A DNA stretch of 63,773 nucleotides, the filler included, from Hausera hauseri (Eukaryota): NCBI GenBank assembly GCA_046269625.1. It is 11 parts of 11 records of this genome, joined end to end, with 100 filler letters (N's around TTAATTAATTAA, not from the genome) between each part and the next. Parts side by side here need not be neighbours in the genome. Positions count along the whole stretch, not along the records: positions 48,105 to 63,773 come from JBJURY010399922.1; 10 more parts are not named here. One strand, 5' to 3'. Under the pieces are notes generated by a model. That model made no database searches, had not been told where the DNA came from, and saw only the letters and a program-made list of their open reading frames with translations. The translations under genes and the position numbers were made by a program. Of the stretch, positions 12,701 through 63,773 are shown in pieces (within the stretch, counting starts at the first letter, position 1; every line of letters begins with the position of its first letter).

Positions 12701-13278
12701 GTTAGGTAAGCCCCTGGTGTTCCTGGGGAAACTTCCAATAGAAATTCCTGGGGAATGCCCGTCGGTCGTTTGACTATTTTAAAGTCCAGCAATCGGCCGT
12801 CTTTATCTCTGAGACCAGGACATTCATGAATCCGATGACCATTTACCGTTAAAAGTAAAGTTTTTCTATCATCCTTAATTTCACAATGGTGAATATCGGG
12901 AAAATTCCAAGCCTCAACCAGTTGATGTCCCTTATCGATTTCGGTCAGACATATCCGAATATTTTGGACGTGAAAAGTGTACCATTCATTAATGCGAAGT
13001 TTCGTATAGCTTTCATTACTTTTAACGAGCCGTAAACAGAAAAGCAGATCTGGTAAATACTTTCGAAGAATGTCTTTTAACTTAATATGTCCGGTGAAAG
13101 AATTGTCCATTAAAAGGAAGAAACATTCTTTCTGACCAATTATTACAAAGCCGACATCTCCAGTCCCGCATTCGTAACCATAAATATAAATAGCTTCAAT
13201 TAAACCTTTCGTGTTTAAATCAATCATTTCGGCGACAAGACAATCGGCAACTCGATGAATGCACGTTATTATGCGCAT
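9734..13278 (-). CDS. RBBP6: RBBP6/Mpe1-like E3 ligase, multi-exon, with an atypical N-terminus and a frameshift near 12615 (possible pseudogene or chimera)
   Basis: GHRIHECP (half zinc knuckle), KRPTGIPQEFL, EAYAMGKK..PFL, RING CPLC...TPCCATVYCEKCI...CHTC, LTKEEFYEKQRQL, an RS-rich segment and a K-rich tail KKKHKKHKHKK. Confidence 0.75.
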
Positions 13279-14155
13279 GACCTTTCTCCATTTTGTCTTT
13301 CGCTTGCAAAAATTTACTTCTTGTTCAAAATTACTTCTGTATTCACCATCAACAATTATAAATGCATAAATCGCTAAAATATGAATTATTGTGAATGCTA
13401 AAGCTGAAAGTCGAATTTAAATGACCTTGAGAACTGTTCAACTGCTATCGAATGGCCCCGGCCATTTTTATGGGACCCGTTGGTACGAGTTCTCTCGTTT
13501 TGGTTTTGCCGAATTCTGAGATCTGAATAGAGAATGTCTGGNNNNNNNNNNNNNNNNNNNNNNNNNNNNNNNNNNNNNNNNNNNNTTAATTAATTAANNN
13601 NNNNNNNNNNNNNNNNNNNNNNNNNNNNNNNNNNNNNNNNNTTGATAAACTACGAAGTTAAAATTGAATGCCGAACCTTACACACTAATCCAATCATAAT
13701 TTTAAAAAACAGTAGAGAAATCGAATGTAAATCTTTGCGGCCGCAACACGATTATGTAATCCGAATTACTGCCAAGGGTTGAAGACCTGAAACTTTTACG
13801 GCGCGGACTCGTAACGACAAATCAAGAGCAACACGATATAAAGATCTTAGTACCCGTAATGTGCTTACCACAAAAGGGCCTAGTGAGGCGAATAGTTTAC
13901 CGATAATAACTATATTCGGTTTGTCAACTTTCGTTCTTGTCAGCGACGATTTTCTTAGTTTCCAAAAACTGCAATAAACAGCGCAAAAATCAACAGAGGG
14001 ATAAACGGGAAAAAGGGTACCGAGACGGGCTTTAAGATAGTATAACCTGACAATTACAGACCGGGTTATCCTATCATCAGACAGAGGAAGTGTTTTGGTT
14101 CAAAACGATGATATGTCTTAGAATTGACATTTATTTTTATTTTAGCAGAGTAAGT

Positions 14156-16516
14156 ATGACCGACAAGGCGAAGAATTCAACGCCCAGTACCAGACACGAT
14201 ATCGACGACTTCCTACAACAACATGTGACAGTTTTGAAGCCACCATCTGAAAGCTTATACTATTAGATCGGAGAAAGTCTAAAAAACAAAACTTATGTAG
14301 AAATTAATCAAAAAAGCAAAATACAAAATGGATTGAAATGGGGCTTAGATTAAAACGACTAATTCAATTATACGCTATGCGGGATCCGAAGGATGCACGA
14401 GCATACCTTCTAAAAGATATGATCCCATATGAACCGACGCATCAGCAATTGTACATACATGTCGCTGACGGGGAAGTCCAATACAGGATAGCAGGGCAAC
14501 CCTGGAGCACACAAAGAGGACAACAGTGGAAATTTAGCACCTACGAGTTGTGTTGCTATAGTCTCATATGTTTTGGAGTTCAGAATTGCCGAACTTCCAA
14601 CCAAGCTTATGTTTGAATTAACCTTGCTGACCGAAGTGATGAGACCACTACCACCTATACTATGTATACAGAAACCCTCGGAAGATAAGATAAAACAAAA
14701 TGGAGAATCGTTCAGACTAGTTCCGGACGACCGAAATACTCGAATTTTAGCCGTAAACTATGGAGAGAAGGATGACGGATGGTACACCCCAATCGAAGTC
14801 TCTATCCGAAGTATAAACGGAGAAGAAATTATAAACAAAATAATCTTACCTAGAAATAAAGTAAAAGATACATTTCCTGACGTTACCTGAATTACGAAAC
14901 TACAACTTGAGAAAGGCAAAGATTTCTTAGAAATCCAAGAAGATATAAGCCATTGCTTGTATGGATTCATTAAAACCGGATTCACAGTACATGAAATGCT
15001 AGAAAGGCTATGGATTAAACAAGAATTCGTGGAATTCGTGAACTGAGTCGGAACCCGACGGCTGTAAACCGCGTGGAAAACACCCTAATGAGAAAGAGAA
15101 GATGTCTACTTCGCTCGGCGTCACGAGAATCACAGTTTAAGATGATTCTTGAAGCCATGAATGGCGAAAAATTTAGATTTCCTAAGTTGATGATGGCAAG
15201 CCAACGCACGAAAATAAGAGAGATATTTACATATCGCTACGATGGGAACACGAGTGAAAATCCAGAAACCCTATACAGAATATGATCTCTGACAGTAATC
15301 CAAAAATTTTAATGCAGGAATTCCGTAACGGGTTTAGTGAATACCAGATATCCAGACAGATTGAATCCCAAGGGCACAATAACTTCCAAATAACCGTTCA
15401 GAACGGTCCAGCCAAACCATTCAAACCAGAAGGACCAAATAAGTACAGCCAAGCCTCAATTGATCGAGTCCAAACCAAGTACAGACCGGCTAAAGAATTA
15501 CAAAGACGACAAAAGAAGAAACCGTCTTTCTTTGAGTATATCAGCAAGAAGGAAACCAAGACAAATAAAAACTGTGCTAAGGGATAGAACCGTCCACTAG
15601 CAGCCTAATGCCGACGGCCCAAGAAGAAATAATAGAATCCAAGGACAAACTGAAAACGCCAGAACCCGGAAAAACCACCGGACAAGGAACGGAAACGCTC
15701 AGTTGCGGATCACCTAAAACGGAAGTGAACGTTCTCCGAAGAAATTTGGAAAAACCAGCCTCTATCGTGGTAACCGAGTTCGGTCAGATTAAAGAATACG
15801 CCCAAATGCTTCTTATGGCCGAGTATTATAGCATAGGAAAAATTAAAGAAGCCATGCTTTATGTCTCCACAGTTCCTAGAAGAATCGTAAGTGGAAACGG
15901 ATATACCCGAGAGGATGTAACCATTGGCTGATACTTGGCCCCAATATTCCAGTCGAAAAATGGTATTAATAGACTAACCATCCCAGTAGATACCCAAGTC
16001 CGATTACAACTTAAAAGACAGTACAAGGAAACCGGAATACCCGACTTAGATAAACAATAAATCATTGAATGGACGTTGGTCACCGTGTCAGATGACCTTA
16101 AGAAAAGTTCTATAGACCCCAAAAAACGGCTATACGGATATCTATACCAAGATAAAAAGGGACTCGTATTCGAACAAATGGAAGTTGATGAAAACCTCGT
16201 AGACATTGATAGGGGTGAAAAAGAAAAATGTCCCGTTTGTGATGCAAATCTATATCAATGATTTGTAGCATTAAATAACAAAGATTGCACCCATAAATAT
16301 TGCCGTTATTGCTTAAAAACGTGGACCCTAAGAAATGGGAAAACGACGTGCCCAGTATATAGAACCAAAGGTACAAGACTGAGATATTTCTTTAACAGAG
16401 AAAAAACAAAAAGATAGTGGAAATATTTCACCAAAAGGCCAACACATCATACCACTTTGACCTACGATCACCCCAAGATGAATCGAATTCGGAAACAGAC
16501 TTACGCGGACGAATGA
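14156..16516 (+). pseudogene. Accessory ORF-B with C-terminal RING finger (RING about 16229-16360)
   Basis: Fragments at 14338, 14573, 15073, 15282, 15608 and 16076 join into a homolog of 50033-52375; CPVC...CTHKYCRYC...CPVY. Confidence 0.75.
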
Positions 16517-26299: not shown

Positions 26300-27260
26300 G
26301 GGTGAAAATATTGATTTGGCACCTATTTACACTGTTATTAAACCGCAACCTTCATCATCTGAACAATCGACACAGACCATATCTTGATATCCAGTATTCC
26401 CATGGCGATTTTGCTAACGTTTCTGACTTCAACCCAATATGGAAACAAATCCATCATTACTAGGATGCATCTCTATCCCACTTTAGATGGTTTCATTGGT
26501 CCCATTATGTTCCACAATAGAATTTGTCATAGATATTCGGTAGTCAATGATTTATACACTTTTCTTTTTCAGGAGGCTTCCATTTTTGATAAATTAGGCA
26601 ATTTCGTACATGCTCTTTGTTATCATCAAATATTTTAGGCCACCAGAATAATAAAATTAGAATTTTATACGTCTTCTCCATTCCGAAATGACCCAGCGAA
26701 TGAGCTGACTCTAATATAGTTGATCGTTTCTCTTGTGGAATAAGACGCTTGTTTTGTTATTTATCCATAAACCAAACCTTTCCATCTGCGACTTGTAATT
26801 TATTTTTAATTTTAAAATACTCTTTTTATGGTTTAATTTCTTTTTCTCTCGTTACCTGTTCAAAATCCTCATCGATTTCCTTAACTGCTATTGAGTTTAT
26901 CTTTAAGCGTCTAGATATTGAATCTGCATTTCCATTTTCCTTTCCTGGCCGATATAATCTTTCAAATGAATATTCGTGCAGCAGCATCAACAACTGTGCT
27001 ACTCTCCTCCATGAATCTTTTATATTTCACCGCAAATACTATGGCCAGTAGCTCATTCTCAATCACTGAATAGTTCTCTTCTGCTCCTGTTAATACTCTG
27101 CTCGCATAAGCAATATGTCTCTCTTGAATCCCAGATCCTTCACGTATTATTTCTCCCACAGCACTTTGTAAAGTATCAGTAGCAATCACAAACGGTTTGG
27201 AGAGATCTGGCCATTTTAAAAATGGAGGATAAGTGAGCAGCCATTGTTTTCTTTTAAAAT
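26300..27260 (-). mobile_element. Degraded Ty3/Gypsy RNase H-integrase fragment
   Basis: PFVIATD, HIAYASRVLTGAEENYSVIENELLAIVFAVK, IIYRPGKENGNADSISR and GHFG. Confidence 0.85.
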
Positions 27261-36500: not shown

Positions 36501-36782
36501 GCAGCAAAGAAAGGCAAATCGTTAAAATTAACGCGTACAGGCCAAGGACCGTACAAAGTTGTTTATGTGCGTCCACAAACGCATTTCATTCAGAAAGGAC
36601 CTGATAAATACAAGACCATGTATGTTCAACGAGTAACTCGAGCGCCTACATCATATAACGACTTCATACGCGAAGCAGAGCTAGAATCGCCCAACACAGA
36701 AGAGCCCAAAGTAGCAGAACTATGCAAAACTTACTCGATGAATAACTCAGAATATTACTCATTTCATTTCATTCAGAGCTGA
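33545..36782 (+). mobile_element. Degenerate Ty3/Gypsy pol (RT-RNase H-integrase-GPY), related to the large element
   Basis: LDLQSGF, MPFGLKTAP, SYIDD, ILKTDAS, HDSHLAGH...CKIC, QTDR, YHPQCNGMVE and VHYPAAKKGKSLKLTRTGQGPY. Confidence 0.93.
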
Positions 36783-37700
36783 TACATGGCTATCCTTTCT
36801 TCATGCGTTTATCATGCCTATTACAACTGAAGGCATCAACCTAACGGTAGCACCACTTAATGTATTGGTTGAACGCACCACAATTATCAATGTTGATACA
36901 AATAAACCTAGTATTTGTCTTCGAACCCACTTGCCGGTAATAATACATCATAAAGTTGATTTTGTCTTCACATTACAATATAATGTCTTCTCAGTGTGCA
37001 CAATTCTTGAAGCACATAACGAAACTTCCTGTTCCGTCAATTACGAATCAACGTATACGTACTATGTAACACTGAAGGTCAATAATACCGATGCAATTCT
37101 TTGGCAGCCAAATATGACTTTTTCACGTTCCCACTCATCAAGCAATGAACATATTGAAAACTTCCGATGTATTTTCGCGCAATCCTTTTATCGCCTATTT
37201 CTTACAACATGATATTGAAATTTCTAGTATCGATCTTGTAAGACAACCACCTTGTATGAATTTCCGCACCACACAGTTATTACCCATCAAATTTGAGATC
37301 AGCATATGGATCGACCCTATCTCTACATCTATACAACAACCACATTATTGTTATCTTAAGCGGAATGATATTCGTTCATGCTGCACGCTCTATCCAGACA
37401 TCTAGTACAGAATCCGTTTAGATGCATATCAAACAATGGAAAATAGTCAATCCATTAGAGTGCATTCTCATCGCATTCCTATTTTATTTTCAGTTAAACC
37501 AAACATACATATTCCAGCCCTTGCCATGAAGCGCATTACTTCTCCGCGATCTACGAAACAGATGATAACACCGAAATTAGGCACTACACCCACCTATAAG
37601 GATAGGGGAGACCGAGACCAAGACCGAGACCAAGATCGAGATCGAAACCAAAATCAAAATCTCAAATGAAAGTCAAAAGTTCAGATTAAACCACAGAATC
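36760..37700 (+). pseudogene. Post-integrase accessory ORF-A homolog
   Basis: PISTSIQQPHYCYLKRNDIRSCCTL aligns with PLNTSIPKPGYCSLARRRITVCCVL of 48579-49487; followed by a T-rich segment and a GACCGAGACCAA-type repeat. Confidence 0.7.
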
Positions 37701-38569
37701 AGTATAAATACAGGATCAACGGCCATATACGTTGAAACAGAAATTACATAAACATGTATTTTATGGGAAATGGATGAAAGAATTTCCATATACAGACCGT
37801 GTTGAGATAATACTGTAAAACACAATGAATGAACGAAACATCATGGTAATATGTACAGGTTCTGACGAAAAAGTTATTATCAAGTACGAGACAAATAAAA
37901 AAATTCTGTAAAAAGNNNNNNNNNNNNNNNNNNNNNNNNNNNNNNNNNNNNNNNNNNNNTTAATTAATTAANNNNNNNNNNNNNNNNNNNNNNNNNNNNN
38001 NNNNNNNNNNNNNNNCGATGATTTTGAAATATCCGTCGTTTTCTCGGAGCTGTTCAGGCTGCGTCCGCTCTCCACGGCGTCCTCTTCAGTACTGACGGCT
38101 TTTACAGTGACGAACCACCATTATATAGGGTTTTTGTGGTGACGTCACTGGAGCTTCTGAACGCATCTTAAGCGCCATTAAGCGTTAATATCGTGTTACA
38201 CCAAGCAATGATTTTAATAAGATGGAAAGAATTTCAGTGACAACCATTATGTTTATTAAACATATGTAAACTGTCACCTAGACGCTGCTAACTGTGTATC
38301 ATAATATATTTTTACCCCACGTATACTACTACCATCTACTGACCAACACTTGTCTTTAGTTTTGTCCCTTAATTACTTGTTTAGATTAGAAATGTATAAT
38401 TTGTATTTATTATAAGCTGTTGTGTATTTATTGTACTGTTGTGTATTTTATTGTTTTGCACTTTTGTTTTATGTTGCACCATGATCTCTGAGGAACATTG
38501 ATTCGTTTCATTATGTACCTATATATAACTGAAATGAAAATGAAGACTCTCTGGCTCTGACCTTTTTTT

Positions 38570-48104: not shown

Positions 48105-48536
48105 TTCTTAGAAGGCACACAGTTCGCCATTAATACTACTCCACATCCTGCGACAGGATTCACTCCATTTTTTATGATGTAAAATAAAGAAGCTGTACTG
48201 CCTACAGATTTAGGATTGATTCCATATACAACTAGAAGGAAGGATTTAGAGCAGAATTTTATCGAAGTATTACAATCAAGATTTCACAAATGTTGGGAAA
48301 TAGCCAAAGAATTATCTAAAGAATACCAGGAACAATTCAAGAAGCAGTATGATAAAAAGGCTAAACCACACGATCTAGAACCCGAAAACTTGGTCTACGT
48401 ACACTATCCAGTAGCCAAGAAAGGCACGTCTCTTAAGCTTACTAGAACAGGTAGAGGACCTTATGAAGTTACTAAGGTTACACCAACCACAGTTTATATA
48501 AACAAAATTGGCACGGAAGAGGTCATATTAATTTAG
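48105..48536 (+). pseudogene. Integrase C-terminus with GPY motif (continues from 63119-63773)
   Basis: FAINTTPHPATGFTPF, KKQYDKK and TGRGPYEV. Confidence 0.9.
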
Positions 48537-48578
48537 AGAATAGTCGAAACGGAAATAAGGCCAAATAAACGCTATAAT

Positions 48579-49871
48579 TTGCCTTCAGGCAAAACAAATA
48601 AAGAAAAGAAAACGTCGTCGATAGTGACTAGACCAATATCGTATGTGCAAATAATCCTGGCCTTATCGTTAATCGCTTCGTATATACCCACAGTGAAATC
48701 CATCACTCAGACCGAAAAATGGAAGGATATCCAAAACTTACAGTCACTTAGAGTACGCGATATGGATTGGAGAAAACCATGTGCATGGTTTGAAGCAAGC
48801 GTACCTATTCGGAGCCGCGTAAAATTTCAAATAATATTTGTAACCAGGAAAACGATGAGAACGTGCGATTTTCCGTACGGAATTCATAGGAAATTCTGTA
48901 GTTTAGATTTTGGACAAACCTACGGATACGGATTTCAAATGTTTTATTTATATCAGTTCGGAGCTCAAGCCTACATAAGTACGGAGCTCTCAATAAGAGT
49001 GCCCCAACGAAAACACGATAATCAAGCGAAGACGGACGAAATAATTAGAAGCATTGATCCAGTTAAAAGGTTCTTAGACTACAACATTATTGGAATTCAC
49101 AAGGATTTGAAGAACCAATGTATTCGAATTGAGACCAAGATCGGACTACCAGAAGACAAGGAAATATCTGTACAATTTACACCATTGAACACTTCAATCC
49201 CTAAACCGGGATATTGTTCTTTGGCCAGACGACGAATTACGGTGTGCTGTGTACTGCTACTAGGACAGGAGTATCAGTTGCAATTCGATTTGTACAATAC
49301 GTATCTCGGAGAACCAAGTATCTATATAAAAGGATATCGTCCGAAAAACGGAATAAGGCAGCTTCCGTTTCCAACCACTACGAGACAACCGTCCACAGTT
49401 ACGAGCACAACTCTCACTACTACGATAACCACTTCAGACGAAATGCCAAGGGGCATACCTGTTAAGATCTTGGAAAAAAAGCGATAGGATTCTATTCTAC
49501 GCTGAAGAGACGTTAAATCGGGACGTCAAAACTGAATGTCGCACCCTGCACACCAACCAAGTTATGATTCTGAGAAAGAATAGTCAGAAAACTAAATGCA
49601 GGTCATTACAACCACAACACAACTATATAATCCGAATCACCGCAAAGGGTAAAACCCTAAAACCTTCACAGTCCGAACGCATGACGACAAAATCGAAGTA
49701 ATACAGTATAAAGATCTTAGCACTCAAAATGTGTTCACCAAGGAAGGTTTTACTGAGGAAAACAATTTACCGATAATAGCTATATTTAGTTTGTCAATTT
49801 CCGTTCTTGCTATATTAACGGCGATGATTTTTCTAGTTTCCAAAAATTGTAATAAGCGCAGTAAAAATTGA
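48579..49871 (+). CDS. Accessory ORF-A: type I membrane protein (signal peptide, Cys-containing FN3-like repeats, Thr-rich stalk, TM helix); disrupted after 49487
   Basis: YVQIILALSLIASYIPTVKS; LDFGQTY, LLLGQEY and SLQPQHNYIIRITA; TTTRQPSTVTSTTLTTTITT; TM IIAIFSLSISVLAILTAMIFLV (~49773-49838) then KNCNKR. Confidence 0.7.
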
Positions 49872-50032
49872 GAGGGAGATAAAAGGGAAAATGGGCACCA
49901 AGACGGACTCTATGATTGCATAAACTGACAAATACAGATGGGGTTATCCTATCATCAACAGAGAAAATGTTTTGTTTCAAAACGATGATCTGTCTTAGGA
50001 TTGACCTCTATTTTTATTTAAGCAGAGTAAGT

Positions 50033-52375
50033 ATGACCGAGAAGGCGAAAAATCCAGCAATCAGTTCCAATTACGATATCGATGATTTCCTCCAGCAGCA
50101 CGTCACTGTTCTTAAACCCCTGTCCAAAGGTCTATACCGACAAATTGGAGAAAACCTGAAGACTCAGAAATATTTAGAATTCGGCTAAGAGAGTAAAATA
50201 CCAAACGGACTAAAATGGGGCTTGGAAGAGAATCGACTGTTTCGATTATACGCCATGCGAAACCCAAAGGATGCACGGGCATACCTTTTAAGAGATGTAA
50301 TTCCCTATGAGCCGACACATCAGCAATTGTACGTACATGTCGCTAATGGAGAAATTCAATACAGGATCGTAGGACAAACCTGGTGTACGCAAAAAGGGCA
50401 GCAGTTGAAGTTTAGTTTTTATGCGCTATGTTGCTATAGTCTCATGAATTATGCCCTGAAATTTAGGATCGCAGATCTTCCGACCAAAATCATGATCGAA
50501 ATGACGTGGCGAACCGATGTAATGAAGCTGCTACCACCGTTATTATATGTACAAAAACCATCAGAAGATGAGATAGAGTAAAATGGAGAGTCCTACAGAT
50601 TAGTTCCAGACGGTAGGAACACCAGAATATTGGCCGTGAACTATGGAGAAATGGATGACGGGTGGTATGTTCCAATCGAGGTCTCTATTAGAAATACCAA
50701 TGGAGAAGAAATCATAAACAGAATAATTGCACCTCGAGCTAAGAAAAAGGACACTTTTCCCGACGTCACAGGAATTACAAAAGTACAGCTCAAAAAGGGA
50801 AAATATTTCTTGGAGATCCAAGAAAATATAAGCCATTGCTTATATGGATACGTCGTTACCGGATTCCGAGTTCACGAAGCGTTGGAGCGACTAGAAATTA
50901 GGCAAGAATACATAGCCGGAATTCGAGAAGTAAGCCGAAACCCAGCCGTTGTGAGCCAAGTAGAAAATACTTTGATGCGGAAAAGAGGTTGTCTGCTTTC
51001 TCCCTCAACATCTCGCGAATCACAATTTAAGATAATGATAGAAGCCATGAATGGCGAACGATTCAAATTCCCTAAGCTAATGACCGCAAGTCAACGGACC
51101 AAGTTTATAAAAGATATCTATGACTCAATACGATGGGACCACGAGTGGAAATCCAGAAACCACATGCAGAACGCAATATCCGAAAACAACCGCAAAATTC
51201 TGATACAAAAATTTCAAAAAGGGTTTAGTGAATACCCGAATTATCGGCAAATTGAACCACAAGGACATAACCAATTCCGAGTAACAATCCCTAATAATCC
51301 AATGGAAGTTCCAGACAGCCGACAGAAACCACTCACCAGAAAGTCTCGAAAAGAAATGACAGTAAAACCAGATTCAAGAAGACAAAAGACAAAGATGACT
51401 TTTTAGAATTTATTAGTAAAAAGAAGGACAAAATCAGTAAGAGTCAAATAGAAGAAATCAAATCAACAATAGACAGCTTAATCCAGGAAAGAAAAATGAG
51501 CGATCAGAGAGAAGCGTAGAATCAAGACAAAAACCACGGTAATCAAACGAAAATTCCCAAATCCAGAACCCTTAAAACGGAAGTCAACGTTATTCGGAAG
51601 AACTGGGAGGAAGATACCACGATTACAGGTACACAATTTGGCCAAGTGAAAGAATATAAACGAATCCTCGTCATGGCCGAATACTATAACAAAGGAAAAA
51701 TTAAAGAGGCTATATTTCATTTATCCACCGTCCCGAGAAGATTAGTGAGTGGAAACGGATATGCCAGAGAAGATCACACTATCGGCAGATACTTAGCCTC
51801 AATATTCCAATCAAAGAGCGGCACCAACAGACTAACAATTCCTGTGAATACCCAAGTCAGAATTCAGCTGAAAAGACAATACAAGAAGACTGGAATACCC
51901 GATTTGGACAAACAAGAAATAGTAGAATAGACCCTGGTTGCGGTATCCGACGATCCGAGAAAAAGCTCAATAGACCCCAATCAAAAGAGACTGTACGGAT
52001 ACTTATACCAAGACAGAAAAGGACTGGTATTCGAGAGAATAGAAGTGGACGAAAACCTAGTGGACATTGATGCCGCTGAAAAAGAAGAGTGTCCCGTCTG
52101 TGACGCGGATCTCTATCAAGGATTTGTAGTCCTAGACAACAAAGATTGCAATCACAAGTATTGTCGGTACTGCTTAAAAACGTGGACCCTGAAAAATGGG
52201 AAAACGACCTGCCCTGTATGAGAGCCGAGGCTACCAGACTAAGATACTATTCAAATGGAGAAAATAAAAAGATAGTAGAGATAAAACCCGAATAGGCCAC
52301 TACGTCCTATCATTTTGATTTGCAATCGCCGTCGAACGAAACGGATTCAGAAGCGGACTTACGCGGACGAATGAA
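50033..52375 (+). pseudogene. Accessory ORF-B, unknown N-terminal domains plus C3HC4 RING finger (52090-52221)
   Basis: Fragments 50033-50188, 50222-50581, 50630-51406 and 51646-51930, then CPVC-x15-CNHKYCRYC...CPV*. Confidence 0.78.
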
Positions 52376-52428
52376 CCAATTACGCGGCACCTCTTCTGAC
52401 GCAATGGGCACATCCGAGAGTGCCTTTC

Positions 52429-52440
52429 AGGGAGGAGAAA
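52429..52440 (+). promoter_or_regulatory. Polypurine tract
   Basis: AGGGAGGAGAAA abuts the LTR TG; identical at 16571-16582. Confidence 0.88.
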
Positions 52441-53151
52441 TGTTATAAATGACTATGAACAAATTGTAATTATGTACAGAACCGAAATGAAAGCGAAACT
52501 AGTGAAACTAGACTAATAAAACCACGATAAATCAATTGATTAACTATGAAATATCACAAAATGCCAGTTAGTAAATGTCAGGCGAATTTAATCAATAGAA
52601 ATGGCAGAAAATTCCAAAAAATGTATAAAATTAGGTAGCAACGACGCTATGTAAGTAGTCAACGTAATATATAAAGTTAGTTAATTATTGCCAGTGTAAT
52701 TAGTTAATCAGTCAGATACGAATTAGCAAATATTACTATCAGGCGAATTGTTCAGTTATTCCAAAATTTTGAAAGACTTGACGATTAAATCCGGTACATT
52801 GATTGCATTGTTGAAAATTACTAGTATTGCTGATCCGACATTCTCATTATCGGTGTGGTATTATTGTTGTTATTGAATAAACTATTATATCTTAAAAATT
52901 TCTATAGTTTTTCGTCACTCCTTACGAGGGACTTGCATCGTACTAAGTTCTAAAATCAAATTTTAAAATTTTTAGTTAGGTCGAGAAATTTGTAATTTAC
53001 GCAATCACTGCACGCAGTGCACACATCTTAAAATAGTGCAAACATGCTAACGAGAACGTTAGAACTTATCTGCTCAAATAACATTTAAATTTTGAAAATT
53101 ACTCATTGTTATAGTTGGGTGTTGGATAGGGTCAACCTTCAACTACTAACA
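52441..53151 (+). repeat. LTR (711 bp)
   Basis: TGTTA...TAACA inverted termini, TATAAAA near 52624, AATAAA near 52877; bounded by PPT and PBS. Confidence 0.88.
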
Positions 53152-53153
53152 TT

Positions 53154-53171
53154 TGGCGACCCTAGCAGGAC
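53154..53171 (+). promoter_or_regulatory. Primer binding site (probably tRNA-Arg)
   Basis: TGGCGACCCTAGCAGGAC lies 2 nt after the LTR; its complement TCCTGCTAGGGTCGCCA resembles tRNA-Arg 3' ends. Confidence 0.8.
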
Positions 53172-53588
53172 AGTTTGAACTTGCTAGTCTTGACTCTTAG
53201 TGAAAAGTAACGACATATTAGCGATTAGCGCTATAACATTAAATAATTGATTGCAGATTATTGTGAAATTAAAATTTGGGATTAGAAAGAAACCCTCCGT
53301 ATTATAACGACATATTATTGGGTCAAGACGGATATTGACGGACATAAGTTAGAGGATAACCTAAAACTCATTCTAAACGGTAAAGTGAATATTATTTTTC
53401 GTGAAACACGTAATAGAGTTTATAGAGAAGGTAAGACGTTGGGTACACGCACTTTACCCGAGTCAAATTTAGTTAATACCGAACTTATTGATTTAAACGC
53501 TGTTTAACAGCCTATTGAATTTAAAATTCCTGATAAGAAAGTTAGAACTCGTAGGATAATTAAGCAAAATCTAATAAACGGTGAGAAT

Positions 53589-54660
53589 ATGGTCGAAAAT
53601 CAAGCAGTAGCTCAAAAATTGGACACTTTTACATTCGACTCTCTGAATCTTCCGGCGTACGACGGAGACCGGGACGGACTTAACGAATTTCTAAGGACAT
53701 ATAAGTTGCATGCAGAAGGTGCTTGACTAGCAGCTAACGTGATGATTAAACGTTTGTCGTTATATTTAAAGAATTTGGCCGCTGATGCCTATAGTAAACT
53801 CATGGATGATAAAAGAAAACTTGTTCCTCACTGGTAGGAACCCTGAATCGAAAATTATTGCCGACTGTAACTCCGCAACAAAAACATATGACTTTTCAGC
53901 ATAGAGTACAACAAAATGGTGAATCAATAACCCAATTCGCTTTTGCATTAAAGAAATTGGCAAACAGTTACGTAAGCACTTTAAGAATAGCAAATATAGC
54001 TAAGGCTAAAAATGAAGCAGAACGCGAAGCCGCAGAAAAGGCAAGTCTCCCCGACATAGACGTCATGATGATGACACAATTAATAAATGGTATTTGGTCT
54101 AAAGACATAGTAAAGCAATTGATTCTAGCACGTCCCGAAAATTTTGATAGGACATTGCAATTAGCTCAAGACTTGGAAATGACATTGGATAGATATGCCA
54201 GAAACAATGACAGAAACGATAGAAATAATGATCAAGGTGATCGAAGCGATAAAAATCAAAATAATAGAAATGATAGACGATTTAATAAGAATTACGGAGA
54301 CCGAAACAAGAACGGTAATTAAATTCGCAGAAACGAGCGATATAGTAATCAGAATTTTGATAACAGTCGAAATAGTTTTTCTAATAAATCAAACTATACT
54401 ACGGATAAACGTATAGATGGCTCTAAAAATTTTAATCGACAAAGCGACAGTCGAAATTACGATAATCGACAATATGGAGATAATAGACAGGTCCGGCACA
54501 GCAGAACTACAATAGAAATCCGGGTAGATCGAAATCCCCGTTAAACGAAGATGACCGACAAAAGATCGGAAGAAATGGCAATTTTATTTGTTATACGTGC
54601 GGACAAGAAGGACACAGCGAGATCCTGTCCAAACCCGCGAAGCGTCTCGTTTGTTGAACC
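53589..54660 (+). pseudogene. gag with CCHC zinc knuckle (54589-54628)
   Basis: LPAYDGD..GLNEFL, RVQQNGESITQFAFALKKLA, QLINGI, an N/D/R-rich linker, and CYTCGQEGH/ARSC split by a frameshift. Confidence 0.85.
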
Positions 54661-55357
54661 TAGTAAAACTAATGCAATTAAAAACGAAAACTTTGAAGTA
54701 ATTTACGGTGTCCGTAGAGACACGGGTATGATCATCGAGATACAGGATTTACGACGTTTTTTAAAAGTCCAACCCTTTACTACAGACTTTAAAGTCTTAG
54801 TGGCCAGAAACGAGTATGAACACAAGTTACGACTATTAGAAGTTTATCACTGTCTGTGCGAACCAGAAACAGAATATGAACGTTTTATTGCCCGCCATGG
54901 CTTACTGATATGACACGAAAAAAGAACATTCCTAAGGCAAGCAACGGGTCAGACGAAACAGAAAATCCTGAGATACCGAAATAGGTAGATATAGATGTAG
55001 AAACCGAGTATACTATAAAAACGGTAATCACGGAGACAGAGGCCGACAAAAAAGAAGAATTTCTGGAACCGCTTATACTTAAAATTACCAAGGATAGAGG
55101 CCGTAGTCCATCATTGAGACGAAAATGCAAGGACCGATCGAGATCCCCAATGATAAGGGAAAAGTCAAGCACAAAGAGAGAAGCCGAGATCGCGCTAGAA
55201 AGCGACACAGAATGCGTCTTGAACATTCCGGAAATTGATCTAGTTACGCCAAGCGAAAAAAGGAGCTAACAAAATATATAAATGAAATAAACGAAGTATG
55301 TCCTCTACCCACTAGCGAAAAGGAAACAGAACAATAAGAGAAACTCGATCCTAAGAA

Positions 55358-57499
55358 TTGGAAAGTCAGACGCTCATGGAAAATGCTAATAAATTAAAAA
55401 GAATGAGGACCAACTGTCTAAACCCCGAAGTAGTACAACAGAATATAGAGAAACTTAAAGCAATGAGTGAACAAGTGGATATTTCGGGCAAAGAACAACA
55501 GTTTGTAGAGAGATTATATAAAAAGATAAACCTATATAATGAAGGGAAACTAAGCGAAGCCATAGACTTAGATCAGCCCAAAGAAGTGTCGAAGGGAACT
55601 TTATCTCAGTGGAAACACGAATTAGAACGCTGGAGCAAATGAAAGACAAAATTTCCGGAGACGTGAGATAAAGCTACCCAAGACATTGAAACTAGAGTTA
55701 ACCAAGCACAATCGCTACTAACTACATTAGAAGCCAACCCGAAACTAAAAAGAGTAGCACGTAATTGGAAGCGTATTATGAATGAAATTAGATTTGCGAT
55801 AGCCGAACAACTCAAGGGAAAGCCGGTCAAAGAATGAGATGCAAATGACCTAGAGATGTTGGGCATAGATTCAATAGACATTCCACCCTTGATGGAAATG
55901 ATGAAGGTCGCTTCGACAGCATCAAAGCAATATACAAGTTTGGAAAATCGTATTAGAATTGAAGCCGAAAAACGGTCGCAGATATATGGTTTAAGGAACA
56001 GAATTATGCACAACGGTAACGAGGAAACACATAAAATAATTATGGCTTGCATCCTCGAGTTTGATGAATACAAAGATGAGTTTGACTATGCCTACCGGAT
56101 CGTAGATTTTATTAAAGGCCCAGATGATGAGCTAGAAGATGCTCGTAACATGTTAAGCAAAGCAATATTGGCAAAGCCAGAAATCGCCAATCAGTTGAAT
56201 GAATGGTCCAAAGTAATAAGAAGGTTGAGTGCATTAATAAAGAATCGAAGAAGCGAATTCCCGGAAAGTGAACCTACAGTGAAGAAGCGTCTAAAAGAAG
56301 ATGCCCGAAATCTAGATACAATGAACGCAGAAATTGACATCCAAACCCAATTTGAGGCATTACGCCAATTGAACTTCATGGAAAAGAAACAAGAACTAAC
56401 GATACTAGATGATATCTATAAAATGATCGAGGAAACAAATTTCATGAGGAAACGGAATGCGACTTGCGATTTCTGTCCGCGATTGAGAGACGTCCGCTTA
56501 AAAGGGATACGATATTTGACGACTAAGCCTATCAAGGAAATCTCGATTCAAGATCTTAAAACTTTGGACTTTTGTCCCGAATATCGGTCTGTCGTCAAAG
56601 AAACGGTGCAGTTCTTGCATCACTCACAAAGATGGGCGGACGGAACAGATCAAAGGCATCATACTGAACTAATTAAAATAAAAAACGACCATCACCTCAG
56701 TTTCGAAGAGATCAAATTTGTAAAAAAATTATTAGATGCGATAGACCCAGATTCACTATTGATAGCAGAAATGGCAGAGATTAGTGACGAGAAGCTAAGA
56801 CAATTGCTGCAACAAATACAACAAGTTGAAGAAACTTGCATTAAGACGAAACAGACAGCAATGAGATTAGAGGAGTTAACTAGAGAACTCGAAGGCTATA
56901 AAAACAAGTACGCTCTTACAGAAGCAGAAAAAGCCGACAAGTCACAATTCGTGCAAAGGTGGCAAAAAGATGTCACGTCCGAACTGACGAAATATCAAGA
57001 AAAAGGGTTAATTTCACCGAAAGAACTATGTTCGATGTTAACACTGCTCCATCAAACGTCTAATAATGGACATTGTTTCCGAACGACAAAAATAGTTCAG
57101 TTGCTACAGAAACTACAAGAACTCAGAAAAATTACATGGACTGAAAGTGTGGATATGCCAACCGATACACCTTTAAGGGACTATCAACTGCCGAATAACG
57201 AGAATGAAACAGAATGGGAGGCATATTTGGATGCAATGATCGCTGAAAACCCGAAAACTCCCGTACGATTAAGCGAAGCAGAGGTATATTTTTCGGACCA
57301 AAGATTTAATGTGGGAATGCTACTAGACCCAATACAAACTGAGAAAGATTTAATTCAGTTGATCGAAGTAAACCTCACGGAAGTTCAATTAAGACAGTTG
57401 GTCCCTACTCTAACTAAATTAGCTAGCGAAGGTACGATATATAGTACGGTACCAAAACTTTTACTTAAGGAATATGCCAAAATATTGAAAACAAAATGA
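55358..57499 (+). CDS. Large helical/coiled-coil region of unknown function inside the element (547-aa open segment 55856-57499)
   Basis: Long E/K/L-rich ORF colinear with gag, with heptad-like stretches; no recognised motif. Confidence 0.7.
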
Positions 57500-58097
57500 G
57501 AAGAAAGAATTTCAGTAAAGATAGTAGCAGACTGGATGGTCGAGAAAGAACACGAGTTCACTACACACTTTCGTGTAAAAGATGTAATAGAGTGGATAAG
57601 AGATAATGGACCAGGAGTTAAATTACAGACTCTATTTTAGAGGAAGAATATTAGAGGAAACGGAACTGCTAATAGAGGTCGGCATTATTCCAGGTGAAGC
57701 ACACCGGATAGTTGTAACTATCCCTGTCGAAGAAACAAAGGAAGAAGCTATAAGAAAAGCTAAACAGAAACAGTGCGTAGGACGAATCATAGGAGTTCGA
57801 GATCCCGTAATGTATTTCGAGTACTTGCAGACAGATAGAGATGATGAACAATATGATAAGAATTTAGCACCCATAAACGGTAATGTACCTCCTATAACAA
57901 AACAGAGGCGTCCTGTCGGCAGACCACGGAAGTTACGAGAAGAAGTCGATTATAATGGAGACCTAATCAAAGAGTGGAGGCAAATGTCTATACCAACCTG
58001 CAATGCAAACAATGAGGAACTGAACGAACTTATGAAAAAATTGATACGTATAGTAAACCATTCTAGTTTCAGCAGCGATATATTAGATGAGAAATAG
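57500..58097 (+). CDS. Ubiquitin-like domain (~57509-57725, one frameshift) followed by an AT-hook
   Basis: ISVKIVAD...RVKDVIEWI / YRLYFRGRILEETELLIEVGI resembles ubiquitin [29 protein letters not shown] follows. Confidence 0.65.
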
Positions 58098-58448
58098 AAG
58101 GCCATATTTAATGCCGCCAAGGTTATGAAGAGTCTTCGATGTAAATTATCTAGAAGTACCTTGAGCAACGAAATGATAATCGAGAAAATTATGGTAGAAA
58201 ATACCATAGAAGAATTGAGAAAAGCGATGTTATATCTGGCCATTAAAACTAACCCAAACCGAGAAAACGAATTTAACAAGGCTACTACTTTGGCAAGGAA
58301 GGCTGCCAGGAAAATGCCTCGGGAAGTAAATTGGTCTAAGTTATTCAAAAAAGAAGAAGAACATCCAAGTGGATTTTTCTTCGATAACAATAAATTCGGA
58401 GATCTGTTACGAAACGTAACCGGAAACCGCACAGGAAACGAATCGAAC

Positions 58449-60633
58449 TGGCTAATTAACTTTTTGACCATGATGATGTTAATAAGGCAAATGAGCGCAG
58501 TTACAGTGTATGACTGCGACAAATTTAGACTTGGCCAGAAATACTCATTAATGGATTTAGAAATGTGGGAAGACACGAGACCCCACAAATTAGAAACAAA
58601 AGAAAGGAATTACGTAGAGGCAGGAAGATTAGACATGCACACCGGACACTGTCAAAGTGCAGAATACGATACCGGGAAAGGATTAGAGTCAAATGTCGTA
58701 GTAGTAGACTTTTATGAAACCGAAATGCGCGTACAGAAAGTGATGTTCCATAGTGTTACTAAACTTTATACTGAGAACCATAAATGTCACATTCAAGATG
58801 GCACATGCCCATTTCGAAGTTCCGTAGTAATTTGGGAACCCACAACTAAGTCTGATTGCAACTTTATCAGAATTAAAGAACTAAAATTTAACGAGACAAC
58901 GGGAAAACGGTACGTAAGTAGCACTGAAACTAATTCCAAAACACGAGAAGATGATCGCTGATACTCAGGGGCTTAAGTTTGTTAAGAAAGATGTATTCAC
59001 AAGATGCGATGTTATAATGTATGCTACTAACTATAAAGCATTTTTTGTGGCCGAGACGGAAATAAACGTCCGAACGTTTAAGCTCGAGACTCAAGACATC
59101 CGGATTGAGGATTACCTGAAAAACAGAGATGACTATTTCTATTATAAAGGACAGGCCGGAATAGCTAAATTGTACCACAAAATGATAAAGAATGACTGCA
59201 AGTTAGATTTAGAGGTTATGAGAACTAAGCTAGCCCTGATATATGTTAATCCTGAGTTGGCATCACCAATAATTCCGATGAACGAAGGTGTTTTTGGACG
59301 AGTAACCGGAGAGGTTTTATTGACGTATGAATGCGAAAAGAAAGACGTACCAATTAATGTAGAAGAGAAAAGGTGTATACAAGAGTTTCCAATGATATAC
59401 CAAGACGCACCAAGATTAGTAACCCCAATTACCAGAGTGTTGTTGGCAAATGCCACGCAACCGACAATTTTGAGAGATTGTAAGACTAGCTTAGGAGAGC
59501 CGATGTTCAGACGTAGCGAAACCGACTGGATAAGTTTACCGAATGGCGGTATTATCGCACTTCCTACCAAACTGACAGGAACAAATTTGATAAAAGGAAT
59601 AACCGATGATAAATTTCAAGATACAGCAGCAAAAGGTATTAACCGACAAAAAGAGGTAGAGGCATTTAGACAATTCCTCTCTTTTCCCCGCCAGCGTACA
59701 CATGAATTAAATAGAGCGATGCATACGATACTAGAAGACTCGCGCCACCAGGCGAAATGAGAGTCATTACTCGATGTTGGTTATTACAAGAAGGTAACTA
59801 CAGAAATATTGTACAAAATTTGGGGAAGATTCCTGATATTCGGACAGGCCGCGTCAGGGTTTCTAGCGATATACTTCTTAATTCAACTAGTAAAAGCCAT
59901 AATTCAAGCAATCATAAATGGATACGAGATATTCACCTTGACAGGATTTTCGCGTAAAATTTTAACGGCTATTATTACTCCCTTCGGCAAAGTCCTAAAG
60001 GCTTATGAAGAGGGTAAATGGAAAACAGATGTGAAGAGACATGTTGGCTACTATAACCGAAAGCGGAAAAGACGCATAATTAATTACAAGCAAAAATTCA
60101 TAGATAGTAAGACACGAAGAAATAATTCTGACGATGAGAAGCCTAAGGGAGGAGACGCCATCTCCAGATTGAACCGGCACAAAAATTACTCTATTATGAA
60201 ACTACTATTACCGATATTGCCGACAATGGTACCTATATATGAAGATTGCGAGAAACAATCTATAAGCTTATGCAAGACAGACGTCTATCAGAAACCATTT
60301 AACATAGAGGACCCCTATGAAGGAACAAAACGCTACGGGATATTGCGTAAGATCCGCGAAACAGAGAGAACGTTTATTCCTCATCGTCGCTGGGCAGTCG
60401 ACGATCACGGTGTGATGTATTCACCTAGAGTGCCTAAGCCAAACGAGACGCAAGCATTATTTTCCAGAAGCCGTGAGGTACACAATCTCCAGAACCAAGA
60501 TGTTAGGCTACCAATTCGAAATCAAGGAATGGAAAATACGATGAATACGAATAATGAATTATACCCCATTGGAGAACTAAGGCAATTAATCGAGCAACCA
60601 GTTGGAACCACTGAAGTTACCATAAACGATTAA
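58449..60633 (+). pseudogene. Envelope glycoprotein, chuvirus-G-like (probable class III fusogen), frameshifted
   Basis: Internal signal WLINFLTMMMLIRQMSA followed by VTVYDC; CHIQDGTC..VIW..C; GVFGRVTGEVLLTYEC.......CIQEFP; LVTPITRVL; C...PMF....W; pre-TM and TM IWGRFLIFGQAASGFLAIYFLIQLVKAII. Confidence 0.78.
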
Positions 60634-60636
60634 AAG

Positions 60637-63600
60637 ATGTCCACGGCACGGCGCCCCAAGACAGCACCAAGTTATTACGGTACAATAATCGAAGGTAGGC
60701 CCTTCGCAAAGATTCAATTAGAAGAATGGGAGGTTTACGCGCTAATAGATACAGGATCTGAAATATCACTAATAAAATACGATTCGATACCACAATTTCT
60801 ACGGAAACAACTGTATCCACCTCTTACGACAGACTCAGGAAGCACTGGAGCTTTCGGACAGTCATCGAAAAGTAAATTTCATTGGAAACCAGAAATTCAC
60901 ATAATGGGACAATGCTTCCGTCACGGATTTTTAGTAATGGAGCAATTAGCGGATCATGTAGTATTAGGGTGTGACTTGTTGAGGCAACTATTTAATATAG
61001 CAATCGATTTCAATGCAGACAAGTTAATAAAACTTGGTCCAATAAAAGGAGTTAAAACCACTGAAGACAGGAAATTTGGAGAAGTGCAGATTCCAGTGGA
61101 CGAAACCATACCACCCAGAACAGAAATTTTGATATATGCTCAGATACCTCAGGATGACGATCAGCCAATATATTTTGAACCAAAGGAATCGCTCGATCCA
61201 AACATCGTGCTCAGCAATGTCTTGACAAGATTATCAACAGGCCGCGCGCCAATCAGAATATCGAATAATGCGCCTACTCCAAACCAAACTGTACGCCAAT
61301 ACTACTCTAGGACACACGTGTAGAGTATTATCAATTACCATCGAGGAGAAACCGTATAAAGGCGCTGAGTTTCCGCCCCACGTCGAGACTATATTTTTAC
61401 CGGAATCCTATTGTCGATTCTACGAATTACTCTGCCGTTACAGCTTTATTATCGCTAAAGATAAAGAAGATATTGGCCGAGACAAGACCTTAAGGCTCAC
61501 AATTCCACTTAAAAAAAGCCTAGATCTAACGACGAAATAGACTTAGAGGATCAAAAGATGTCGAAATGGTATCCTCCTCCACACTCGTTACGGCCAGAAA
61601 TAACTAAGGAAGTTGAAGGAATGTTAAAGGCTGACATAATTAGACCAAGCTGTAGATCTTGGTATTCAGGTATCCTCATGGTTAAGAAGAAAGGTGCCAG
61701 TAAGCACAGATTCTGTATCAACTATCGAGCATTAAATACACGTATGATGAAGGACTCTTTTCCGTTACCATCAGTAAAGGAAGCTTTGGACAGACTGTCT
61801 GGAGCCAAATAGTTCACCACGCTTGATTTGCAAACTGGATATTGGCAAGTAGAAATAGAAGAGGAAGATCGTTACAAAACGGCATTTAAGACACATTACG
61901 GCATATATGAATTTAATGTTATGTCTTTTGGGAATCACTACTGGACCAGCCATTTTTACCCTTATGATGAAGAAAATGCTAATGCGACTAGAACACGCAT
62001 TTGCCAATTTGGACGATGTTATGATTGCATCGAAAACGGACGAGGATCATTTAAAGGACATTGAAGATACACTTATGAGACTAGAGCAGGCTGGACTGAA
62101 ACTGAATCCCAAGAAGTGCAAATGGGCTCAAAATGCTGTGTCGTACCTAGGACATACTGTAGGAGAAGGAGGATCAAAACCGGATAGATTACTATTGAGC
62201 AAAATATCGGACTGCATGGAACCTCAGAACCAGAAGGAGTTAAAACACTGGTTAGGGTTATGAAGATGTTATGCGACCTATGTACAAGATAATGCGAAGA
62301 TAAACGCACCTTTATATAGCTTATTAAAAAGGAATTAAATGGATATGGACCGATGTCTAACAAAAGGCTTTTGATGAAATGAAGAAAATTCTAACTAGCG
62401 AACCAGTTTTAAGATATCCTGATTTCAACCTGCCTTTCATAATCAAAACATACGCAAGTAGGGAAGGTATCGGATATGAATTAGCTCAAAAACGCGAAGA
62501 CGAGGAGCTAGAACACCCAAACGCATATGGAGGGTGTTTTCTAAAGAAAGCAGAAAAGAACTATTCTGTTACAGAGTTGGAAACGTTAGCGATGAAAGAA
62601 GCCCTGCGACATTTTAAAGTGTATGTCTATGGACAAAAGATCGTAATCGTTACTGATCATAAGGCAGTTACAACTTTAAAGGGTAGAGCAAATAATCCGA
62701 CCTGTAGACTTAACAGATGGATTGAGGAGATCTCACGTTACAATATTAAATTTCAGTACAAACACGGAAGTAAACATGTCGACGCTGATGCATTATCTAG
62801 ACTTAGAACTAAAACGAGCACCGTTACGATAATGAAGAAGGCTCACCTTGAAGGTCTGGTAGAGAGACAACGGACTCTTGTGTTAGATAAAGCATTAAGG
62901 ATTTCTGTCGAACAAAAGAAGGATAGAGTGATACAACAGATTATTGAGTTCGCGAGCACCGGCAAAATGCCACAAGGCCACCAATTGCGAAAACATCTAA
63001 GAAAATATGGCAACAAATACTGCTTAACGGGAGATTCGAGTCACGAAAATGTGTTATACTATGAGCGAAAAGGACGGAAATTAGTCGTCATGCCGAAAGA
63101 TTACGTACAGAAGTACTCATGGCGGAACATGATTCATACTTAGCCGGATACATGTCGTGGAAAAAGACATTGGAAAGGATATTAAATAAGTATTATTGGC
63201 AATGCATTTATATCGACGTAAGGAATTGGGTGAATACTTACGAAGTATGCGCAACCGAACAGAGAAAGGTGAAGAGTTACATTGCCGAACTTAAGCCCAT
63301 TGACGTGCCCGATAGACCAATGCAAGCAATGTTTATGAATATTGTAGGACCCTTGCATACAACCCACAAGAATGATAAATACATACTGACCTGTGTAGAT
63401 CGATTGACTCATTTCGTTAAACTTATAGCATTATTAGACCAAAAGGCCGAGGCCTTGGCAGAAGCGGTAGTCTGGAAAATCATTTGCAGATACGGGCCAC
63501 CCGAACAAATATTGACAGATCGAGGAAAAAACTTTACGAGCGAATTGTTTGAGAAAATTACCAAGAATTTTGAGATTGAACGATTAACTACCACAGCTTA

Positions 63601-63773
63601 CCATCCCCAATGTAACGGAATGGTCGGGCGGATGAACGTGACCGTTATACGGATCTTATCCACAGTAGTCGCAAAGACCAGAAAGATTGGAATGAATTCT
63701 TAGAAGGCACACAGTTCGCCATTAATACTACTCCACATCCTGCGACAGGATTCACTCCATTTTTTATGATGTA
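60637..63773 (+). pseudogene. pol: aspartic protease, RT, RNase H and integrase (stops and frameshifts)
   Basis: ALIDTGS, RFCINYRALN, LDLQTGYWQ, NLDD, YSVTELETLA, VTDHKA, ADALSR, LTDRG and YHPQCNGMV. Confidence 0.95.

Follow-up and report, generated by a model that had tools for sequence, protein, structure and literature searches.

Ty3/gypsy errantiviruses with a GAG-ENV-POL order and an HSV/gB-type envelope protein are known from Nematoda, Bryozoa and Platyhelminthes (Chary and Hayashi, PMC13524379). In the available part of that survey, the 14 elements with LTR calls among the 30 rows listed measure 8.9-13.5 kb, the search window having been about 14.5 kb; herpesvirus gB is described as needing gD, gH and gL, and the entry of the gB-type errantiviruses is left unexplained. 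The planarian Burro/GYPSM1 elements carry between gag and protease an in-frame, mononegavirus-like env as well as ubiquitin-pathway cargo, with a total length of more than 30 kb and an internal region of up to 25 kb according to the available text (Arkhipova and Yushenova, PMC6431247). The hookworm Atlas virus, of Belpaoviridae type, has a fusogen and a second glycoprotein, and its GN-like protein is the more variable and is thought to bind the receptor; its class II GN-GC pair is made as one precursor and was acquired as a single block from phenuiviruses, the FN3 there being domain III of GC (PMC9094657, available text). In addition, Caenorhabditis elegans Cer1 (CERV) and the bdelloid ORF3s place a non-fusogen ORF at the post-pol env position and express it from spliced RNA; in the available texts, CERV is a nuclear RNA-export protein and the rotifer ORF3s encode esterases, exonucleases or short TM proteins (PMC10309623, PMC5408684).

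The window analysed here, a stretch of 63,773 nt from Hausera hauseri (assembly GCA_046269625.1), consists of 11 contigs with spacers of N and TTAATTAATTAA between them, and three copies of a membrane-protein gene sit on three separate contigs. We found that the contig at 48105-63773 has an identical 77 nt at both ends and is circular, as expected of a collapsed LTR element. It represents a collapsed, decayed Ty3/gypsy element of about 16.3 kb (15,592 nt plus one 711-nt LTR), in which the order is LTR, gag-like region, ORF X, possible ubiquitin-like domain, fusogen, protease, RT, RNase H, integrase, FN3-like gene, ORF Y, RING ORF and polypurine tract (Table 1). The RNase H region matches Ty3 (E 3e-19), and the fusogen sits between gag and pol, inside the same LTR unit as the FN3-like gene. 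These data support an element-encoded, predicted FN3-like type I membrane protein that shares one LTR unit with a gB-type fusogen. The host of the element is probably an invertebrate, and its layout makes a flatworm plausible.

Table 1. Positions, in the window, of features of the circular element (48105-63773) and of homologous copies on two other contigs
Feature	Position	Strand	Remarks
Integrase C-terminus with GPY motif	48105..48560	+	runs on from 63773 over the 77-nt contig overlap
Splice-acceptor-like site	48573..48588	+	about 35 nt 5' of signal peptide; 8/11 pyrimidines + CAG; weak, post hoc
Broken gene, type I membrane protein with three predicted FN3-like domains	48624..49928	+	tblastn with P0001: 30% over 477 columns, E 5e-62; terminal residues align
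Signal-peptide-like segment	48624..48701	+	near-identical in P0001; cleavage point judged by eye
Domain 1, FN3-like, with Cys residues and a C-x-W in strand B	48735..49001	+	seven predicted strands (P0001 model); IL-9 receptor alpha chain aligns at Z 7.3, rmsd 2.6 over 83
Domain 2, duplicate of domain 1	49071..49346	+	hhalign 92%, E 5e-7, 0/40 column shuffles; Z 6.4, rmsd 2.6 over 73
Ser/Thr-rich stalk between domains 2 and 3	49362..49445	+	15/28 residues S/T; P0001 12/26
Domain 3, FN3-like, two frames in window copy	49455..49680	+	Z 6.9, rmsd 2.8 over 76 to ROBO1 FN3
TM helix	49773..49838	+	hydropathy 2.61; helix 433-465 in P0001 model
Short cytoplasmic tail ending Y-D-x-I	49839..49928	+	stop at 49869 interrupts
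ORF Y, broken	50033..51406	+	about 450 codons; dN/dS 0.06 over 110 codons (purifying selection)
RING-finger ORF, broken	51520..52221	+	PF13639 E 4e-7, above cut-off; dN/dS 0.07 over 209 codons
Polypurine tract	52429..52440	+	abuts TG of LTR; identical in contig starting at 13642
LTR (TG...CA)	52441..53151	+	single copy because contig circular
Primer-binding site, begins TGG	53154..53171	+	primer presumably Arg tRNA
Gag-like region with broken zinc knuckle	53508..54650	+	read by eye; no Pfam match
ORF X, long helical/coiled-coil region	55355..57499	+	553-aa open stretch; weak Pfam matches only
Possible ubiquitin-like domain over two frames	57500..57740	+	FERM_f0 E 0.11 (first half), ubiquitin E 0.11 (second half); weak
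gB/chuvirus-type (Monjiviricetes) fusion glycoprotein, broken	58450..60000	+	PF24664 77 and 55 bits, cut-off 27; TM at 59860
pol: protease, RT, RNase H, integrase	60634..63773	+	Pfam; several stops and frame changes
Homologous gene right after integrase, distinct pol subfamily	36786..37915	+	includes domains 1 and 2 and the stalk; domain 3 probably begins at the contig end
Homologous domain 3, TM, tail in sister subfamily	13642..14050	+	followed by ORF Y, RING ORF, LTR, gag

The element resembles the gB-type errantiviruses in its gypsy pol order, LTR, primer-binding site and gB/chuvirus-type fusogen between gag and pol (PMC13524379, available part), but differs in its length, its second membrane gene after pol, its ORF Y and RING ORF, and in that the copy is not intact. 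The published catalogue takes elements with uninterrupted gag, pol and env, and here many stops and frame changes interrupt the frames; the contig being decayed or a mosaic of copies, this speaks about the individual copy rather than the family. With Burro/GYPSM1 the element shares the mononegavirus-like env in frame before the protease and the ubiquitin-pathway cargo, and possibly a ubiquitin-like domain before env, represented here by the two half-matches at E 0.11 (PMC6431247, available text). Its size is about half theirs, and membership of Burro was rejected on that ground; MATH, BIR, ankyrin and BCL2 domains gave no match in the ORFs scanned, the short broken pieces having been scanned in part. 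In contrast to Atlas virus, a class III fusogen and an unrelated predicted FN3 array flank pol on opposite sides. The env tail and the protease lie in one frame with one stop between them, and other breaks hide the remainder of a possible gag-env-pol polyprotein. Searches with the fusogen piece against longer proteins matched none of 1,713 candidates, no fusogen match occurred on the other 10 contigs of the window (the contig starting at 33545 itself begins inside pol), and viral contigs contained no locus related to either the fusogen or the membrane gene.

Several further segments of the element were observed. About 1,000 codons (55355-58450) separate gag from the fusogen and include the helical ORF X, with a CxxC, the possible ubiquitin-like domain, and the sequence RPVGRPRK, which we take to be an AT-hook-like motif. 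Between the fusogen TM and the protease there are about 230 open codons (59920-60630), among them YPIGEL, possibly a late-domain-like motif. ORF Y, which had no Pfam match below E 0.04, has a counterpart at about 14150-15400 in the contig starting at 13642. The RING ORF occurs in two copies (51520-52221 and 15710-16363), each just 5' of the polypurine tract and under purifying selection, and is a candidate for a retroelement-borne E3 ligase.

The membrane-protein gene had been placed at 48579-49871 from the sequence alone. It is not intact there: the copy has no in-frame ATG 5' of the signal peptide, frame changes near 49480 and 49650 (in domain 3) and a premature stop at 49869, and homology to an intact protein puts its limits at about 48624 and 49928. 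The stop at 49869 was absent from all 24 contigs of one public run listed at that position. For the 316-codon open frame at 48537-49487, Pfam gave nothing near cut-off. Among 1.84 billion protein representatives, a search gave a single match, P0001, a protein of 479 aa that is 35% identical (E 2e-50) and is a singleton from a 4.9-kb contig. P0001 is intact and intronless-looking, aligns to all three window contigs carrying the gene, and consists of a signal peptide, domain 1, a helical linker, domain 2, a Ser/Thr stalk, domain 3, a short stalk, a TM helix and a cytoplasmic tail of 28 residues ending in YDRIT. A two-row profile search again matched P0001 alone among 7,996 candidates; a word-index search with the 316-aa ORF gave no homologue among 932 candidates, metagenome contigs contained no related locus, and a PDB sequence search gave nothing at E 10. 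A further candidate locus (L001) was rejected, its integrase-tail match being weak and P0001, RNase H, integrase and fusogen all lacking a match there.

The membrane anatomy proposed by the sequence-only reading was partly borne out. An N-terminal hydrophobic segment at 48621-48677 (Kyte-Doolittle 1.72) agrees with the claimed signal peptide, and the TM helix is predicted from 49773. The mucin-like stalk is indeed rich in Ser/Thr, but it lies at the junction of domains 2 and 3 and not between domain 3 and the TM helix. Similarly, the motif L-x-(P/G)-x-x-x-Y, claimed for three segments, fits domain 3 (LQPQHNY), whereas domains 1 and 2 read L-x-x-G-x-x-Y; the L-x5-Y spacing of a tyrosine corner with Pro/Gly in the E-F loop is kept in all three domains of both the window copy and P0001. 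By hhalign, domains 1 and 2 arose by duplication, whereas domain 3 scored a probability of only 0.2-1.7% as a repeat of either and is linked to them by the E-F motif alone.

Structure prediction from the single sequence gave a pLDDT of 33. A model of P0001 built on a six-row alignment (pLDDT 48, pTM 0.26) contains a TM helix and three domains made up of beta strands only, with 7, 6 and 7 strands of at least three residues, consistent at this low confidence with the FN3/Ig-like fold and TM that had been anticipated. In Foldseek, all 44 matches listed were FN3 arrays or FN3-containing receptors, going by their titles, and the best had E 3e-8; TM scores were 0.13-0.19 and rmsd 17-27 A because the arrangement of the domains is not modelled. 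Single-domain alignments by VIA had rmsd of 2.4-3 A and Z of 6.4-7.3, non-FN3 Ig-like folds scoring equal to FN3, and Z stayed below 8 for all 48,161 chains. In the Atlas search, matches to FN3 clusters scored 0.84-0.88, below 0.9, and are leads only. The Pfam fn3 model (PF00041, cut-off 25 bits) matched none of the whole proteins and reached at best 14.4 bits (E 0.044) in one of seven pieces, that of the copy at 13651. Judging from these results, an FN3/Ig-like sandwich is likely.

We found that the gene is retained in a second lineage at the same place. The contig starting at 33545 carries a homologue (tblastn E 8e-13, 29% identity over 166 columns), with z=6.4 for the pair of domains 1 and z=16.5 for the pair of domains 2, each exceeded in none of 300 shuffles, and the homology claimed for 36760-37700 thus stands. 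The last 150 nt of that contig may be the start of domain 3: this had z=2.9 (11 of 1000 shuffles) when compared with P0001, but the two other window copies did not support it (319 and 715 of 1000 shuffles). In four blocks, the pol of that contig shares 39-55% identity with that of the circular element, in agreement with a distinct subfamily. The homology claimed for 13642-13990 was also confirmed (z=29 for the pair of domains 3, with 73-77% DNA identity between the two contigs). The gene had been described as common to three elements; there are indeed three homologous copies, but the contig at 13642-18591 belongs to a subfamily of the circular element, and the gene is present there only from domain 3 onwards, through to the tail. 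Over the 113 codons shared with this copy, pN was 0.18, pS 0.68 and dN/dS about 0.11, a rough ratio because dS is near saturation, and the codon comparison indicates that the membrane-protein gene is under purifying selection close to that of ORF Y (0.06) and the RING ORF (0.07). In one public run, which may be the source sample and not independent, 3,814 and 5,080 contig pieces, mostly 80-95% alike, covered two stretches with 30 of 30 bins each, and both families are multi-copy, membrane gene included.

The same data bear on the question of whether the gene is a passively carried piece of host DNA or an assembler chimera in a collapsed repeat. The circular contig with its 77-nt overlap may be a mosaic of copies, no single contig of the public run spans the whole stretch, and the copy is broken. 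However, the same junction recurs on an independent contig whose pol is distant, a third contig keeps the downstream order, the dN/dS is low, an intact intronless-looking homologue exists, and diverged copies cover every bin in both families. A passenger or chimera is therefore very improbable, and this explanation has already been largely refuted.

Attachment proteins such as herpesvirus gD and the paramyxovirus H/G proteins work as partners of their fusogens. We tentatively favour such a role, that of attachment partner of the element's gB-type fusogen, on the basis of the anatomy of the protein, its linkage to a class III fusogen and a divergence faster than that of pol. The gene has the same place after GPY in two lineages, and its faster change, with an identity of about 29% against 39-55% in pol, fits a host-facing protein. 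In such a scheme, the protein would enter the secretory pathway, either from the end of a polyprotein by cutting at an internal signal peptide or from a spliced RNA; the binding head would consist of domains 1 and 2, stabilised by disulphides and raised on a stalk bearing O-glycans; the YxxI of the tail would sort the protein to the membranes where fusogen and particles gather; and on particles or producer cells the protein would grip a host surface molecule, upon which gB would fuse the membranes. More broadly, a two-part, herpesvirus-like entry may exist in an invertebrate gypsy lineage, in which a class III fusogen within the gag-pol region is combined with an FN3 glycoprotein behind integrase, acquired separately for receptor binding, the two being co-inherited across deep pol splits, a possibility that we raise with reservation.

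Several points weigh against an attachment partner. Class III fusogens of the chuvirus/mononegavirus type, to which this fusogen belongs, usually bind receptors unaided. Many gB-type elements may manage without a partner, as the available part of a survey of 1,512 env elements names none (PMC13524379). The weak model (pLDDT 48, pTM 0.26), with no VIA match at Z 8, also weakens this reading, and the RING ORF and possible ubiquitin-like domain would fit host-modulating cargo equally well. The protein may instead be an anciently captured, signalling-dead receptor on the producer cell, which would act as a decoy for a cytokine-like ligand or block competing elements and form a module with the RING/ubiquitin-like cargo. 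In favour of this, a pair of FN3-like domains that contain Cys and C-x-W is reminiscent of a cytokine-binding module, the structural matches often are cytokine receptors (IL-9R alpha at Z 7.3, gp130, IFNAR), a poxvirus interferon-gamma-binding protein is also among them (Z 6.6), and the 28-residue tail lacks Box1. The planarian Burro elements bear apoptosis and ubiquitin regulators (PMC6431247, available text). As in class I/II cytokine receptors and poxvirus decoys, tandem FN3-type sandwiches with disulphides are predicted here and domain 1 contains C-x-W; unlike in those proteins, WSXWS and Box1 are lacking, the identity in structural alignments is 4-15%, and no sequence match exists. A sequence scan for WSXWS, Box1 (as PxP in the 28-residue tail) and RGD found none of them, and membership of the class I cytokine receptors was rejected on the first two. 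These receptors have four Cys, paired A-B and C'-E, whereas domain 1 has three or four in strands B, C' and E and none in strand A; domain 2 is a duplicate of domain 1, and cytokine-receptor and generic FN3/Ig-like matches tie, with a Z difference below 1. The sequence-only reading had named a captured host receptor or decoy as an alternative, but a recent capture is not supported, with no host paralogue at E 0.001 among the 1.84 billion representatives and with WSXWS and Box1 lacking. We rate the anciently captured receptor, as decoy or interfering protein, somewhat below the attachment partner but close to it.

A third role, in cell-cell adhesion or trafficking, would have the protein join producer and target cells, or escort or retain gB by means of YxxI, rather than serve as the receptor-binding part of the particle. 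Fibronectin, contactins, sDscam and neogenin rank among the best Foldseek matches, and the terminal Y-D-x-I is present in two of the three sequences that reach the end of the protein, the third having a stop at the position of the Tyr. Nothing sets this role apart from that of an attachment partner, however, and RGD is lacking; we regard it as unlikely.

If the attachment partner and its two-part entry are real, the FN3 protein would supply the component for attachment or triggering that the gB-type errantiviruses have lacked so far; the 2026 survey calls entry of gB-type gypsy elements unknown in its available part (PMC13524379), and a conserved second surface protein with an intact homologue is a concrete candidate. 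As a decoy, the protein would represent a receptor mimic carried by a retrotransposon, like those of large DNA viruses, and would point to an invertebrate ligand. Under either role, these elements carry accessory surface genes overlooked by gag-pol-env surveys. The words 'fibronectin' and 'accessory' are absent from the main text of PMC13524379, as are 'fibronectin' and 'FN3' from the available text of PMC6431247 and 'fibronectin' from those of PMC10309623 and PMC5408684; none of the terms sought in PMC6338049 occurs there. We did not find an FN3 membrane gene described in a gypsy element, figures, Repbase and the 2018 planarian genome paper lying outside the search. The gag-env-pol gB elements are already published; for a conserved second surface gene of FN3-like type, no printed account was found.

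As to expression, the reading frames confirmed that the gene lies in the frame of the integrase tail with one TAG between. This TAG (48534) falls within the part over which the two integrase tails can still be aligned, and several further stops and frame changes occur in pol; from the alignment it is probably better read as decay, and programmed readthrough was rejected for its position in the aligned tail amid many lesions. A polyprotein cut at the internal signal peptide and a spliced RNA have about even chances, and both may hold. The former is suggested by the signal peptide region being in the integrase frame in both lineages and by env and protease sharing a frame, the latter by a Met just 5' of the signal peptide in P0001, by an ATG at 36786 after a stop in the copy on the contig starting at 33545, and by upstream acceptor-like sites. 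The sites at 48588 and 36776 have backgrounds of 1.15 and 3.2 per kb, with thresholds set after looking. The post-pol ORF of Cer1 is expressed by splicing (PMC10309623, available text).

Elsewhere in the window, another gypsy element has left decayed pieces of its RNase H and integrase on the minus strand at 26592-27237, on a contig with no match to the membrane gene. Also on the minus strand, 9734-13416 contains four open frames of 157-286 aa, two of which were scanned and had no Pfam match below E 0.05. A second circular contig (28442-33444), with a 77-nt overlap, a unit of 4,926 nt and 27% GC, has no frame of 150 aa on either strand and is a collapsed repeat. At 6501-7127, in the contig at 4584-9386, a ubiquitin carboxyl-terminal hydrolase domain (PF00443, E 6e-35) adjoins a 293-aa ORF with short tandem repeats.
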